The notes: generated by a model from the sequence alone, not told the origin. DNA of 64,000 bases from an uncultured Thermoleophilia bacterium (GCA_963702475.1 CAVPCT010000009.1:32001-96000); one strand, 5' to 3'. Positions 4,560 to 12,306 are shown, counted from the first letter of the stretch. Made by a program: numbers and translations.

Positions 4560-4563
<4 letters not shown>
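3919..4563 (+). CDS. queH: Epoxyqueuosine reductase QueH (DUF208)
   Basis: [37 protein letters not shown]; adjacent to queA and tgt; TATACT -10 box 7 nt upstream of ATG. Confidence 0.92.
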
Positions 4564-6785
<2,222 letters not shown>

Positions 6786-6790
6786 GCCGC

Positions 6791-7249
6791 ATGGGTGGAG
6801 GCGCGGCCATCATCATCTGGATCCTGGTGTTCTTCGGGATCTTCTACTTCCTCGCCATCAGGCCGCAGCGCCGCCAGAAGGCGCAGCACTCCCAGATGGT
6901 GCAGATGCTCAAGCGTGGGGACGAGGTCGTCACCATCGGGGGCATGTTCGGCACCGTCACCAAGATCGGTGACGACTGGGTCGAGCTCGAGGTCGCCAAG
7001 CGCACCAAGGTGCGCTACCTCAAGCGCGCCGTCTCATCGATCACCAACATCGTCGAGGACGAAGAGGACGAGGACGAGTACATCGAAGCTGAGGAAGAGG
7101 ACGTCGAGGAGATCGAGGCCGCCGAGCCCGAGCAGCTCGAGGCGGAGACCGGGGACGTCGAGGAGGCCGGCGACGACGTCATCGACGCCGAGGCCGCCGC
7201 AGACGAATCTCCGGAGGCGCCCAAACCGCCCAAGGAGCCGGGCGCCTGA
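6791..7249 (+). CDS. yajC: Preprotein translocase subunit YajC with acidic C-terminal extension
   Basis: N-terminal TM helix, FYFLAIRPQRRQ, LKRGDEVVTIGGMFG; follows tgt. Confidence 0.92.
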   Translation: MGGGAAIIIWILVFFGIFYFLAIRPQRRQKAQHSQMVQMLKRGDEVVTIGGMFGTVTKIGDDWVELEVAKRTKVRYLKRAVSSITNIVEDEEDEDEYIEAEEEDVEEIEAAEPEQLEAETGDVEEAGDDVIDAEAAADESPEAPKPPKEPGA

Positions 7250-7286
7250 GGCGTCGTCCGCGACCGCACAGCCATGAGCGCCGCAC

Positions 7287-7319
7287 CGACGAGCCCTGCA
7301 GGTCCTGCAGGGCTCGTCG
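7287..7319 (+). terminator. 15-bp stem hairpin after yajC
   Basis: cgacgagccctgcag-gtc-ctgcagggctcgtcg perfect inverted repeat; no U-tract. Confidence 0.6.
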
Positions 7320-7396
7320 CATTCAGCGGATGCAGGGATTCTTCACTGCGGACAGAACTGCGTTCTGACGTGGTGTCGACACAGGGGTACTGATCC

Positions 7397-8155
7397 ATGG
7401 CGCATGTCATCGCCTTCGCGAACCAGAAGGGCGGCGTAGCCAAGACCACCTCCACCGTGAACCTTGGCGCGGCGCTGCGCGAGCTCGGGCTCAAGGTGCT
7501 GGCCGTCGACATGGACCCGCAGGGCAACCTCACGATGAGCCAGGGCATCGACACCGAGGGCCTGGACAAGAGTATGTACGACGTGCTCGTCCACCGCACG
7601 CCCATCACCGAGGTCATCTACGAACGCGAGATCGACGTCGCCGCCTCCACCATCGACCTCGCGGGGGCCGAGATGGCGCTCGCCCAGATGATAGGCCGTG
7701 AGCGCGCCCTGCAGCGTGCCCTCGACCCCGTGCGGGAGACGTACGACTACATCCTCATCGACACGCCGCCGTCCCTCGGCCTGCTCACCATCAACGCCCT
7801 CACGGCCTCCGAGGGCGTCATCGTGCCGGTACAGTGCGAGTATCTCTCTCTGCGTGGCCTGCTGCAGCTGGAGCGCACCCTGGAGATGATCCGCGAGAAC
7901 CTCAACCCGGACGTGCGCATCAAGGGCATCCTGCCGACGCTCTTCGACGCGCGCACCAGTCACGGCAGGGAGTCCATCGAGGTGCTGCGCGACAACTTCG
8001 GCCCGCTGGTGTTCGATACCGTGGTGCGCAAGACCATCAAGTTCGCCGAGGCGCCCGTCATCGGGGCCTCGGTGCTCAAGTACGACCCCCGCGGCAGGGG
8101 GGCCGAATCGTACCGCGCGCTGGCGCGGGAGGTGCTGAATGGCCGATCGTCCTAG
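7397..8155 (+). CDS. ParA/Soj-family ATPase
   Basis: Deviant Walker [43 protein letters not shown]; no MinD-type C-terminal membrane helix. Confidence 0.95.
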
Positions 8156-9344
8156 CATGAAGGATGGACTGAGCGAGCTCTTCCGGCGCACGGACTCAGC
8201 GGGATCGCCGCCGGCCGGCGAGTCCGCCCAGGAGGCCGTCGTCAAGGGGCGGCCCTACGTCACCACCATCAAGGTGGTCGGGGTGGGCGGCGCCGGCACC
8301 AACGCCGTCAACCGCATGGTCGACTCGGGCGTCAAGGGTGTGGAGTTCATCGCCATCAACACCGACGTGCAGCAGCTCGACGTGTGCGACGCCGACGTCA
8401 AGATCCACATCGGCCAGGAGCTCACCCACGGTCTGGGCGGCGGCGCCGATCCCGTCGTGGGGCGCGAGGCCATGGAGATCTCGCGCGACCAGCTCAAGGT
8501 GGCGCTGCGCGGCGCGGACCTCGTGTTCGTCACCGCCGGCGAGGGCGGCGGCACCGGCACCGGCGGCGCGCCCGTGGTCGCGCAGACCGCGCACGAGCTG
8601 GGCGCCGTGACCATCGCCATCGTCACCCGGCCCTTCCACTTCGAGGGCAACCGCCGCCGCCGGCAGGCCGAAGCGGGCATCGAGGTGCTCAAGCAGGTCG
8701 CCGACACGGTCATCAGCATCCCCAACGACCGCCTGCTCGAGGTGGTGGAGCGCAACACCAGCGTCGTGGAGGCGTTCAAGCACGCCGACGACGTCTTGCG
8801 TCAGGGCGTGCAGGGCATCACCGACCTCATCACCGTGCCTGGGCTCATCAACCTGGACTTCGCCGACGTGCGCACCATCGTGCAGGACGCCGGTACAGCG
8901 CTGCTGGGTATCGGCACCGGCAGCGGCGAGAACCGCGCCCAGGAGGCCGCGTTCGCGGCTATCCACTCGCCGCTGCTGGAGACCAGCATCGATGGCGCTC
9001 GAGGCCTGCTGCTCAGCTTCAGCGGCGGCAGCGACCTCACGCTGTTCGAGGTCAACGAGGCCGCCGGCATCATCAGCGACGCGGCCGACGACGACGCCAA
9101 CATCATCTTCGGCGCCGTTCTGGACGAGCGCCTGGAGGGCGAGCTCACCATCACCGTGGTGGCCACGGGGTTCGGCGACGTGGTCCCGCGCCGCGCACCG
9201 GAGGCGGAGCCCGAGCGTCCGCGTCTCGCCGAGACGGTGCGGGAGGCGCCGGCGGGACCACCGGCGCGCCGGTTCGGGCCGGCTCCCACGTTCGACAGCG
9301 GCGACTTCGAGATCCCGTCCTTCGTGCGGCAGCCCGAGGAGTAA
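8139..9344 (+). CDS. ftsZ: Cell division protein FtsZ with ~40-aa N-terminal extension
   Basis: [24 protein letters not shown] tubulin signature, T7 loop [11 protein letters not shown]-terminal core peptide DFEIPSFVR. Confidence 0.96.
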
Positions 9345-9363
9345 GTGAGAGTGACGCCGGAGC

Positions 9364-10146
9364 GTGGAGGTGACGGTGCGCGCTGAAGCGGCGGCCGTCG
9401 CCGCACCCCCGGTCGCCCTGGAGCTGGACCTCGACGTCTTCGACGGGCCGTTCGACCTGCTCATCACCCTGATCCTCAAGGATGAGATCGACATCTGGGA
9501 GGTCAGGGTCTCCAGCATCATCGCCGAGTATGTGCTGCGGCTGGCCGACAGCGGGGAGTTCGACCTCGACGCGACCTCCCAGTTCGTGGTACTGGTCGCG
9601 GCGCTCCTGGAGATGAAGTCCCGGCTGCTGCTGGAGGAGGACGCCGAGGAGGAGCTGGAGGACCTCGACCCGGACGAGGCGGCCGAGCGTCTGCTGGAGC
9701 GCCTCGTCCGCTACGGCCAGTTCAAGAACGCCGCCCAGGCGCTCCACGGGCGCTGGGAGGAGCACAGCGGGCGGCTGTACCGGAGCGCTCCGGTGCCGGC
9801 GAATCTGCTGCGCCAGCCGGCCGCCGAAGGCGCCCTGCCGGCGCAGGCGCTGGCGGCGGCTCTTGCGCCGCTGCTCCGCGAGCCGCCCGTGCCCGACACC
9901 AGCCACCTCGCCGACCTGGCCGTCTGCCTGATCAAGGAGCTGCGCCGCCTGCGCCTCATCCTCGGCGACGCCGGCGAGTTCACCTTCTCGTCGGTAGCGC
10001 CCAAGGACCGGCTCGAGCGCGCCGTCACCTTCTTCGCCCTGCTGGAGCTGCACTCCGGCGGTGAAGCCCTGCTCAGACAGCGTCGTCACTTCGACGACAT
10101 CGTCGTGACGCGCCTGCCCGGCTTCGCCCCGGCCGCGGCCGGGTGA
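9364..10146 (+). CDS. scpA: Segregation and condensation protein A
   Basis: FDGPFDLLITLI, AALLEMKSRLLL, VTFFALLEL. Confidence 0.93.
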   Translation: MEVTVRAEAAAVAAPPVALELDLDVFDGPFDLLITLILKDEIDIWEVRVSSIIAEYVLRLADSGEFDLDATSQFVVLVAALLEMKSRLLLEEDAEEELEDLDPDEAAERLLERLVRYGQFKNAAQALHGRWEEHSGRLYRSAPVPANLLRQPAAEGALPAQALAAALAPLLREPPVPDTSHLADLAVCLIKELRRLRLILGDAGEFTFSSVAPKDRLERAVTFFALLELHSGGEALLRQRRHFDDIVVTRLPGFAPAAAG

Positions 10147-10153
10147 GCCCGCC

Positions 10154-10478
10154 CGGCGGGTGACGCCGGCCGCCTCGGCCGGCCGTGCGACCGTCGGCAC
10201 CATCGCATCCGAGCACCCGAGCCCTGATCGTGCCGCATCGGCCCGCCACTCAGGATGGACGCCTCGCCGTGCCCCCGCACCGACCGTGTCCAGCCCGGTC
10301 ACCTCTGCGAAGGTTGTATTCTGCAACGATCCGTGAGGGCGCCGCACCGGTGACCATCTGCGCGGGAGGGAGACGTTGCGGTGTCGGACCCCGTCAGCGG
10401 CCTCGCATCTGACGCTCGCCCGGCGCGCCCTGAGCCCGGCGGACCGTCTCGCGCGCGCGGCGGGTGACGCCGGCCGCC
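10154..10478 (+). repeat. 21-bp direct repeat bracketing the scpA-scpB spacer
   Basis: cggcgggtgacgccggccgcc at 10154-10174 and 10458-10478. Confidence 0.8.
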
Positions 10479-10526
10479 GTCCTGCGGTAGCATCGGGCAC
10501 ACGTCCACCGGCCGACCCTGGACCCC

Positions 10527-11102
10527 ATGCCCACTCTCGTTCAGCGCTTCGAAGCGCTCCTCTTCATATCGTCGCGCCCGCTGCCTCTCGCCGAGCTGGC
10601 GGCGGCGTGCAGGGTCGGCGAAGAGGATGCGGCGGGCGTGCTGGAGGCGCTGCGCGCCGAGTACGCCGAGGGCCGCCGCGGGCTCGTGCTCAAGGAGGTG
10701 GCCGGCGGCCTGGCGTTCGCCGTGGCCCCCGACTGCGAGGACGACGTCCGTCGCCTCACCGGGGCGCAACGCCCGGACGACCTTACGCCGGCCCTGCTCG
10801 AGACGCTGGCCGTGGTGGCCTACCTGCAGCCGGTGACGCGCGCCGACGTGGCTGAGGTCCGCGGCGTCTCCTCCGAGTGGGCCCTGAGCTCGCTCGAGGA
10901 GCGCGGCCTGGTGCAGCAGCAGGGCCGCGCCGACACCCCCGGCTCGCCGATCCTCTACGGGACCGGCGAGCGCTTTCTGAAGCTGTTCGGCCTCGATGCC
11001 GCCGACGGCCTGCCGCCGCTCGAAGAGTTCGCGCTGCAGGCGTCGGACGTGGAGGAGATCCGCGCGAGGCTGTTCGCCAACGCCGAGAGGAGACGGGTGT
11101 GA
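10527..11102 (+). CDS. scpB: SMC-Scp complex subunit ScpB
   Basis: EALLFIS, LKEVAGG, LETLAVVAYLQPVTRADVAEVRGV, PILYGTGERFLKLFGL. Confidence 0.95.
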   Translation: MPTLVQRFEALLFISSRPLPLAELAAACRVGEEDAAGVLEALRAEYAEGRRGLVLKEVAGGLAFAVAPDCEDDVRRLTGAQRPDDLTPALLETLAVVAYLQPVTRADVAEVRGVSSEWALSSLEERGLVQQQGRADTPGSPILYGTGERFLKLFGLDAADGLPPLEEFALQASDVEEIRARLFANAERRRV

Positions 11103-11110
11103 GTCAGCCC

Positions 11111-12306
11111 ATGAACCTGGTCGTCTACCTGGCACGTGCCGGCGTCGGTTCGCGGCGCTCGTGTGACGAGCTGGTGCGCGACGGAGCCGTCACCGTGAAC
11201 GGAGAAGTCGTCACCTTTCCACGACAAAGATCGCCGAGGGCGACGTGGTCGCCGTCAACGGCGACCCCGTCGAGCCGCGGGAGCTCAGGTACTTCCTGGT
11301 CAACAAGCCGCGCGGGGTGGCCAGCACGCGGAGCGACCCCCACGCGGACAAGGTCATCGTCGACCTCGTGCCCAACGGGCGCACGCTGTTCCCGGTGGGC
11401 CGTCTGGACGTGGACACGACGGGGCTGCTCGTCCTCACCAACGACGGGGTGCTGGCCAACCGGCTCATGCACCCGCGGTACGGCGTGCCCAAGACCTACG
11501 CGGCCCGGGTGCGCGGCAAGGTGAGCCGCCGGGCCCTGGCCACGCTGCGACAGGGGGTGGAGCTGGAGGACGGTCTCACGGCGCCGGCCGAGGTGAACCT
11601 CAAGAAGCAGAGCTCGAAGACGGCCCTCGTCGAGATCACCATCCACGAGGGCCGCAAGCGCCAGGTGCGTCGTATGTTCGCGTCCGTCGGCCTGCCGGTC
11701 GAGGAGCTCCACCGGCGGCGGTACGGCCCAATCAACGACAAAGGCCTTGAACCCGGCGGCTACCGCGAATTGGCCGGTGACGAGGTCGAGGCGCTGCGCC
11801 GCGCGGGCGAGGAGACCGCGGAGGCCGCAGGTCGTGAGCCGGAGGGCCAGCCCGTGATGCTGGCCGCCGTGGAGGCGCCGCAGGCCGCGGGCGCAGAGAC
11901 CGCGGAGGCCTCAAGCCGCGAGCCGGAGGGCCAGCCCGTGATGCTGGCCGCCGTGGAGGCGCCGTCGGCCGCAGTCGAGGAGCCGCCGGTCGTTGCGGAG
12001 GCGCCGCCGGCCGTCGCGGACGATGCGGGTCGGGAGGAACAGCCGCCTGTGGCGGGCGCCGAGGCGCCCGCCCCGGCCGAAGCGCGACCGGACGAGGCTG
12101 CACCCGGGACGGGCACGGACGACGCCGACGGCGACGCCGGGGAAGCCTGGACCGATGACGACGCGGCCACCGATGACGCCGACGACGCCGACGAGGACGC
12201 GGCGGACGACGAGGTGGCGGACGACCCGGCCCCCGCGCCGCAAGACGACGCGACGCAGGCCGGTCCCGGCCCCGTCGGTCCCGGCGAAGCTGCGGACGGG
12301 CGCTGA
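11111..12306 (+). CDS. rluB: RluB/RsuA-family pseudouridine synthase with long acidic tail (frameshift near 11222)
   Basis: S4 domain YLARAGVGSRR in one frame; NKPRG, PVGRLDVDTTGLL, EGRKRQVRRM in the next. Confidence 0.88.
11801..11968 (+). repeat. 84-nt (28-aa) tandem repeat x2 in the rluB tail
   Basis: ETAEAAGREPEGQPVMLAAVEAP and ETAEASSREPEGQPVMLAAVEAP; gagaccgcggaggcc at 11812 and 11896. Confidence 0.85.

Follow-up and report, generated by a model that had tools for sequence, protein, structure and literature searches.

Pairing of an orphan ParA with an FtsZ paralog across Thermoleophilia: a candidate system for division-ring placement

How the Z ring is placed in Actinomycetota that lack Min and Noc is unsettled, and the published accounts drawn on here leave unclear what the orphan ParA proteins of this phylum, PldP and Rv1708, do (PMC3989709, PMC10482377). 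Both questions are raised by a locus in 64,000 nucleotides of DNA from an uncultured Thermoleophilia bacterium (G000:C9:32001-96000; that whole stretch is called the window below), in which a gene for a ParA-type ATPase (parA, 7397..8155, 252 aa) runs into a gene for the division protein FtsZ (8139-9344, 401 aa) and is followed by scpA (9364..10146) and scpB (10527..11102), all on the + strand. A sequence-only reading of the window had proposed that this ftsZ stands outside the division and cell wall (dcw) cluster and forms with parA and scpAB a single segregation-division module. We asked how far this ParA and this FtsZ are coupled beyond the window and what their coupling may mean.

A second ftsZ paired with an orphan parA

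All four open reading frames (ORFs) are real, and each has strong Pfam matches: AAA_31 (E 4e-61, 206 bits) and CbiA for ParA, Tubulin (E 4e-45, 155 bits) and FtsZ_C (E 1.5e-33, 115 bits) for FtsZ, SMC_ScpA (E 2.7e-20) for ScpA, and SMC_ScpB (E 3.4e-47) for ScpB, which also scored 125 bits against TIGR00281 (cut-off, 89.2). The motifs, the 17-nt overlap of parA and ftsZ (8139-8155) and the 19-nt spacer between ftsZ and scpA (9345-9363) are as the sequence-only reading described them. The genome holds a second ftsZ, at G000:C2:158660-159730, whose product is 65% identical to the window FtsZ over residues 39-398. This copy closes a dcw cluster with the order rsmH, ftsI, murE, murF, mraY, murD, ORF, murG, murC, ftsQ, ftsZ, in which the ORF at the place expected for ftsW has no Pfam match. 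We call the product of the dcw copy FtsZ1 and that of the window copy FtsZ2; both score above the TIGR00065 cut-off of 295.2 bits (439 bits for FtsZ1 and 406.5 bits for FtsZ2). In tblastn searches, FtsQ and MurC of the same genome matched contig C2 only, with no match on C9, the contig of the window, and the closest SepF match on C9 lies beyond the window, at C9:233171. The window gene thus stands apart from ftsQ, mur and sepF genes, as had been claimed, but the dcw cluster keeps an ftsZ of its own, and the window ftsZ is a paralog, an additional copy. Since public records name both genes just "cell division protein FtsZ," the paralogy is invisible in annotation.

At least two FtsZ matches were found in 69 of 71 Thermoleophilia genomes drawn from the class (at least 90% complete, 10 families, 41 genera), in 39 of 41 relatives, and in 24/24 Thermoleophilia genomes of a draw from the phylum. 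Named public records label the close relatives as Thermoleophilia metagenome-assembled genomes (MAGs). Among the 277 other Actinomycetota of the phylum draw, 264 had one FtsZ match, 11 had two, and 2 had none (this tally and that of the ParA draw given below include genomes flagged unpublished, from which no loci were drawn). Exactly one ParA of the FtsZ2-linked type (E ≤ 1e-70) was present in 69/71 genomes of the class draw, and by coordinate comparison an ftsZ lies directly 3' of its gene, on the same strand, in 67 of these 69; in the other two (G306 and G273), parA and ftsZ are on separate contigs of fragmented assemblies. The two genomes without such a ParA, G361 (92% complete) and G365 (95% complete), are the same two that have a single FtsZ match. 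In six families other than that of the window, all 16 genomes examined have an ftsZ copy immediately preceded by a parA of this type. The coupling is therefore not unique to the contig on which it was noticed, and its conservation makes a functional link between the orphan ParA and an intact FtsZ likely. An artefact of assembly, contamination or chance adjacency might be suspected in an assembly that is rated 94% complete and 6.5% contaminated and has apparent frameshifts in queA and rsmH, but the class-wide counts, the recurrence of the adjacency in dozens of independent MAGs, and DNA contigs from two other runs that bridge the ftsZ2/scpA junction refute it, and we give it practically no credence.

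The grouping with scpAB did not extend as far. In the genus and the wider family (f1) of the window, the order is queA-tgt-yajC-parA-ftsZ2-scpA-scpB-rluB; in the loci with flanking DNA from 19 genus genomes, parA was upstream in 18/18 and scpA downstream in 18/18, and for 32 FtsZ2-type loci from named public MAGs the counts were 29/29 and 31/31, respectively. Among the families examined, scpAB follows parA-ftsZ2 in f1 only. In the 16 genomes of the six other families, the genes downstream of ftsZ2 encode a gamma-glutamyltranspeptidase, YdjC, a nitrilase-family protein, an aminotransferase and others, unrelated to scpAB. The conserved unit is parA-ftsZ2, not parA-ftsZ-scpAB, and the proposed four-gene module fails as a general arrangement. 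That the sole ftsZ of this organism moved out of the dcw cluster into a parA-ftsZ-scpA-scpB operon would suit the local gene order, the short spacers and the conservation of that order within the family; it is nevertheless very unlikely, with its "only ftsZ" part refuted by the second ftsZ in a complete dcw cluster and with scpAB unlinked in the six other families.

A quick maximum-likelihood analysis of 80 FtsZ sequences placed the 34 parA-linked FtsZ2 sequences in a single clade with longer branches (Shimodaira-Hasegawa-like approximate likelihood ratio test [SH-aLRT] support, 97), surrounded by a grade of short-branched dcw copies from the class. Clade and grade stand in a group (SH-aLRT, 95) that also holds a lineage of tandem ftsZ genes and one outgroup family; a weak sister relation of FtsZ2 to the tandem lineage (SH-aLRT, 80) is not relied on because long branches are involved. 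The tree is consistent with a single old duplication after which FtsZ2 changed faster. Of the 11 genomes outside the class with two FtsZ matches, 10 were looked at (all but G232): 9 have tandem ftsZ-ftsZ genes, and in 1 a gene is split over two contig ends. No ParA match and no N-terminal peptide of the kind described below were found in these 10. The tandem genes (L135-L144 and L221-L229; families f35, f56, f63 and f15), some of them visibly behind ftsQ, represent an independent duplication in which one copy is fast evolving, with end branches of up to 3.1 changes per column.

The two genes of the pair are also joined at their ends. The proposed start of ftsZ2 overlaps the end of parA by 4 to 71 nt in 21/21 loci from seven families. 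In the window, a Shine-Dalgarno-like GGGAGG (8127..8132, + strand) lies within the 3' end of parA, 6 nt ahead of the ftsZ2 ATG, and a GGAGG-like element is found upstream of ftsZ2 in most of the 21 loci. Judged by these signals, parA and ftsZ2 appear to be translationally coupled. The parA/ftsZ2 junction is also covered by a metatranscriptome contig (7924-8195), which differs from the window at 1 of 272 nt.

FtsZ2, its ParA, and a proposed mechanism

FtsZ2 begins with a peptide (residues 1-20; 8139..8198, + strand) that is conserved in 21 orthologs from seven families and is a candidate ParA-interaction tag. In the alignment of these orthologs (A1), M1, L11, L14 and F15 are invariant, and R4, S6, M7 and T18 are conserved in at least 90%; positions 4 and 8 are R or K in 21/21 and position 16 is R in 18/21. 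The version of the tag in another family reads MARKRASMREGPLAELFRATE. Across 19 genus genomes, codons 9-19 of the tag show synonymous variants at six codons and zero amino acid changes, and the tag is under purifying selection at the protein level. A tag profile run against all ORFs of the genome had FtsZ2 as its sole match (E 4e-10), so FtsZ1 lacks the tag. When the first 40 residues were searched against large protein collections, the matched proteins had FtsZ domains in 118/118 cases and in 119 of the 120 listed among 397 matches. An exhaustive search with the tag profile gave 996 matches at E ≤ 0.001. Nearly all of the best 150 of these begin at residue 1, and they are mostly fragment-like (42-330 residues); 14 contain the first FtsZ glycine box by a strict pattern, and a few have tails that resemble other proteins or are out of frame. 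No clear non-FtsZ carrier of the tag was seen among these best 150, where chimeric gene calls are not distinguishable, and eight matches looked up by cluster for cultured carriers had only MAG names or none.

A low-complexity linker of variable length follows (8199..8267, + strand). It has 23 residues in the window and ranges from 21 to 148 in the 21 orthologs, without conservation of sequence; P, A, E, G, S, T, D, K, R and Q make up 75-92% of it, a composition by which the linker is predicted to be disordered. Long linkers hold family-specific second motifs, LEETVEHV.DF in one family and SPQERLR.AFSS in another (L034, L044 and L134; L036 and L046), which recur in many metagenomic fragments and may be further docking sites. 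The GTPase core and the FtsZ C-terminal domain occupy 8268..9173 (+ strand; Pfam Tubulin, residues 44-203; FtsZ_C, residues 252-345). GGGTGTG and NLDFAD are present and are invariant in the 21 orthologs except for NLDLAD in family f4, and alignment A3 of FtsZ2 shows G136-G142, N238, D240 and D243 to be invariant. Near the C terminus lies the FtsZ anchor-type motif DFEIPSFVR (residues 389-397; 9303..9329, + strand); the pattern D-x-(D/E)-(I/V)-P-x-F is found in FtsZ2 of six of the seven families and in all 15 FtsZ1 sequences. FtsZ2 is an intact FtsZ and probably polymerises.

The window ParA has a deviant Walker A motif, KGGVAKT, and its translation ends NGRSS. In an alignment of 21 orthologs from seven families (A2; mean column identity, 77%), K11, G12, G13, K16, T17, D38, D40, D122, K212 and A217-P220 are invariant, and the Walker A signature lysine and the Walker A' and Walker B aspartates are present (within K11, K16, D38, D40 and D122). 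The closest solved structures are of ParA/Soj proteins (8ray, E 7.5e-64; 1wcv; 6iub). The protein lacks the MinD family signature, with a minD_bact score of 48.9 bits, far under the cut-off of 212.9. The genome has two ParA proteins, this one and a Soj encoded in rsmG-soj-parB on contig C4, which are 42% identical; identity of the window ParA to scpAB-linked ParAs is 46-53%. The only ParB of the genome matched C4 alone by tblastn, with no match on C9, and its gene adjoins that of the other ParA, so the rsmG-parA-parB context is lacking in the window and the ParA there is indeed without a parB beside it. A ParA tree of 68 sequences has three supported clades, whose branching order is not settled by support: the FtsZ2-linked ParAs are one (22 rows; SH-aLRT, 99), the parB-linked Soj proteins form another, with the window ParA outside it (SH-aLRT, 95), and scpAB-linked ParAs form the third with some orphans (SH-aLRT, 99), the FtsZ2-linked clade lying beside this third clade and not inside it. 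In the ParA draw, 4/4 Thermoleophilia genomes had two or three ParA matches. Because the window genome has just two ParA genes and the other is that of Soj, the FtsZ2-linked ParA may be the counterpart in this class of the PldP/Rv1708-type orphan.

By analogy with known ParA partners, we propose, at a probability of roughly 0.55, that FtsZ2 is a direct partner or cargo of this ParA, whose pattern on the nucleoid would set the placement of FtsZ2 and of the Z ring. An old duplication of ftsZ, at or near the base of Thermoleophilia, would have given rise to FtsZ2, with FtsZ1 staying in the dcw cluster, and FtsZ2 and an orphan, Soj-like ParA would have been inherited together since then, as translationally coupled genes. 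FtsZ2 would have gained the peptide of about 20 residues, with its invariantly basic positions, on a disordered linker. The peptide would dock on the ATP-bound dimer of a DNA-binding ParA, as the N-terminal peptides of ParB, MinE, PomX and McdB do, and might stimulate its ATPase; FtsZ2 filaments, possibly co-assembling with FtsZ1, would be the partner or cargo of ParA, and the pattern of ParA on the nucleoid would determine where FtsZ2, and via FtsZ2 the Z ring, assembles. FtsZ2 is put forward as both partner and cargo because it has all the features of the partner class that can be seen in sequence (a conserved basic N-terminal peptide, a flexible separator, and a gene beside the ATPase gene in 67/69 genomes, with the overlap in 21/21 loci) and because no partner gene other than ftsZ2 lies beside the window ParA at this locus. 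The fuller form of this proposal, in which FtsZ2 is at once the activating partner and the cargo, and the pair would be a minimal system, two proteins that sense the nucleoid and position the ring, is to us a little short of an even bet. If it is true, a tubulin-family filament carries its own ParA tag, which would explain division-site choice in a class without Min and would hint at an unrecognised partner through which PldP-type orphan ParAs of other Actinomycetota act on FtsZ.

The pairing and the tag fit equally well a system of opposite sign, in which nucleoid-bound ParA would inhibit or sequester FtsZ2 by its tag and so block rings over the chromosome, in the manner of MipZ or of nucleoid occlusion; the sequence does not tell the sign of regulation. 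The window ParA weakly matches Pfam MipZ (39.5 bits, residues 3-153, model of 262 positions), but this match lies beneath the far stronger generic match to AAA_31. MinC, searched for as MinC_C, was not found in this 94%-complete genome, which would suit such an inhibitor (MinE was not searched for). We consider this reversal of sign unlikely, if worth keeping in mind.

It seems improbable, too, that the two proteins are co-expressed without contact, with FtsZ2 specialised (for example, for an alternative growth state), its tag binding the membrane, a SepF or FtsZ1, and ParA acting separately with ParB and ScpA in the way of PldP/Rv1708. Rv1708 is reported to bind ScpA and ParB (PMC10482377), the genome has two SepF homologs, the tag is not detectably ParB-like, and L11, L14 and F15, which would lie on one face if the tag were helical, would suit other docking sites too. 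The start/stop overlap in 21/21 loci of seven families would then go unexplained, as would the strict co-presence and co-absence of the two genes, given that the surrounding genes have changed. Acidic residues inside a hydrophobic stretch, such as the tag has, are unusual for a membrane-targeting helix, which argues against a membrane-binding tag.

Several observations weigh against FtsZ2 as the partner or cargo of ParA. The likeness of the tag to the ParB peptide is one of architecture and not of detectable sequence: a similarity in sequence was considered and dropped, as a profile of 26 ParB N-terminal peptides, run against 36,688 genome ORFs, ranked the genome's own ParB first (E 5.7e-5) and did not have FtsZ2 among its best 25. 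In the tag of the genus, acidic residues equal basic residues in number, and so it is less basic than the classic activating peptides. In family f2, three FtsZ2 sequences lack the C-terminal peptide, and FtsZ2 may thus not be linked to the divisome everywhere. The RNA-library contig across the parA/ftsZ2 junction is possibly contaminating DNA, and no RNA cover of the ftsZ2/scpA junction was seen in the metatranscriptome run, RNA runs having been compared as contigs that hold small shares of the sampled words. DNA binding by the window ParA is, for its part, predicted from conserved residues.

Neighbouring genes and transcription of the locus

Upstream of parA lie queA, tgt and yajC, and downstream of scpB lies a gene with a PseudoU_synth_2 domain (Pfam), here called rluB, beyond which cmk, plsC and ispH were named by reading translations. 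Between yajC and parA there is a strong stem-loop (7287..7319, + strand; 15-bp stem, -36 kcal/mol, z -6.45); 0/200 shuffles fold as well, and each of the 12 genus loci examined has a comparable hairpin (-31 to -41 kcal/mol), in which both arms of the stem have changed. The hairpin has no T-run, and a simple terminator scan therefore did not flag it. It probably terminates the queA-tgt-yajC transcript, and its conservation indicates that parA probably begins a new transcription unit; in family f1 the four genes from parA to scpB are probably cotranscribed. A promoter scan of 6600-11400 gave 0 sigma-70-like sites and is uninformative for this phylum, and an Rfam scan of 6500-11500 gave no match.

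In five genomes checked from other families, scpA-scpB is found elsewhere, with rluB after it in 3/5 and with a gene for a class I Trp/Tyr tRNA synthetase, an M50 peptidase or lgt before scpA; no ParA match upstream, and no separate scpAB-linked ParA, was found at the scpAB loci of the five Thermoleophilia genomes checked. Among the 45 Actinomycetota ParA loci fetched (the window locus excluded), 7 have scpAB downstream. The order in f1, with ftsZ2 between parA and scpA, may be ancestral for the class or may be secondary. A small M50-type peptidase gene lies between an orphan parA and scpA in another class (L175 4326-4976 and L177 4210-4833) and directly before scpA in one Thermoleophilia family (L166 2822-3490), and this shared gene hints at a trace of an old parA-...-scpAB arrangement.

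The interval between scpA and scpB holds about 304 bp of extra DNA (10147-10478), the gap in relatives being much shorter. It is flanked by a 28-nt direct repeat (10147-10174 and 10451-10478; 93% identical), and one contig from another run links 10067 to 10462, omitting 394 nt that include the extra DNA. Partial copies are present at C4:102405-102521 (78%) and C3:382806-382848, and the extra DNA may be a small repeat element. The pseudouridine synthase (11245-12306) has a long acidic Ala/Pro-rich C-terminal tail in which a stretch of about 20 to 25 residues is duplicated, EPEGQPVMLAAVEAP occurring twice.

Upstream, queA is apparently split by a frameshift (4560-5655), with its N-terminal part in an ORF at 4560-5456 and Pfam positions 85-321 in an ORF at 4858-5655. 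The rsmH of the dcw cluster is split likewise (L003 1734-2195 and 2035-2853); both may reflect long-read indel errors rather than true pseudogenes. At the end of the dcw cluster, secD and secF follow ftsZ1 (L003 16911-19486). The order ftsZ1-secDF was found in 20 of 48 FtsZ1-type named loci, all with an FtsZ1 84-92% identical to that of the window genome, and yajC (6800-7249), the usual predecessor of secDF, here precedes parA-ftsZ2. This placement of secDF and yajC suggests an old rearrangement with breakpoints adjoining both ftsZ copies. The two SepF homologs of the genome are encoded at G000:C9:233171-233386 and G000:C1:101781-101990 (91 and 64 bits, respectively), and an FtsA-domain match (48.8 bits) is found at C2:340412, outside the dcw cluster.

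Relation to known ParA systems

A search limited to the available literature found no published description of a ParA-linked FtsZ paralog in Thermoleophilia, and our results suggest that parA-ftsZ2 is a division-ring placement system not described before. In this class, every sampled lineage physically couples an orphan ParA to a dedicated FtsZ paralog with the architecture of a partner, which gives hypotheses that can be tested with a peptide, and a defined protein pair to work on.

Partners of ParA/MinD ATPases are described as unrelated proteins that have in common a short N-terminal peptide, charged and often borne on a disordered segment; the peptide binds the ATP dimer and stimulates hydrolysis, with ParB, SopB, MinE, ParG, PomX, McdB and TlpT given as examples, and the partner genes mostly adjoin the gene of the ATPase (PMC7993993; bioRxiv 10.1101/2022.06.09.495121). 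The parA-ftsZ2 pair resembles ParA-ParB, MinD-MinE and McdA-McdB, as reported, in that the partner gene comes directly after the ATPase gene and an N-terminal peptide contacts the ATPase dimer (bioRxiv 10.1101/2022.06.09.495121), a contact that for FtsZ2 is proposed. The partners in those three systems, in contrast, are DNA-, membrane- or cargo-binding adaptors. We know of no description of a tubulin-family polymer as the partner of a ParA/MinD ATPase.

In PomXYZ of Myxococcus xanthus, PomZ is reported to be a nucleoid-bound ParA/MinD ATPase that positions FtsZ, with PomX and PomY as activating partners, and a conserved, charged N-terminal peptide of the partner is followed by an Ala/Pro-rich, probably unstructured region (PMC7993993), an architecture like that of FtsZ2. 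There, however, separate scaffolds bear the peptide and recruit FtsZ, whereas in Thermoleophilia the peptide is on the FtsZ paralog itself, no PomX- or PomY-like gene lies beside parA-ftsZ2, and homology of the peptides is not claimed.

PldP (Corynebacterium cg1610) and Rv1708/MSMEG_3743 (Mycobacterium) are likewise described as orphan ParAs of Actinomycetota, encoded upstream of scpA with no adjacent parB, and PldP and Rv1708 have been linked to division-site choice (PMC3989709, PMC10482377). The ParA of family f1 is also encoded upstream of scpAB, with ftsZ2 between, an arrangement that the six other families do not share. Unlike in family f1, parA and scpA have no ftsZ between them in the PldP and Rv1708 loci, and the FtsZ2-linked ParAs are a tree clade of their own.

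MipZ of Caulobacter resembles the window ParA, in the role proposed for it here, as a ParA-like ATPase with a direct action on FtsZ. It differs in having ParB as its partner, in acting on a sole FtsZ and in being known from Alphaproteobacteria, and the window ParA, with no parB adjacent, matches it weakly and beneath the generic family. As for genomes with two FtsZ genes, the tandem ftsZ-ftsZ of some Actinomycetota is a likeness in number; those genes, some visibly behind ftsQ, are without parA and without the N-terminal tag. Archaea with FtsZ1 and FtsZ2 likewise have two intact FtsZ genes in one genome. Set beside these systems, parA-ftsZ2 would, by analogy, be a variant of the ParA/partner positioning systems in which the partner-like tag is carried by FtsZ2.

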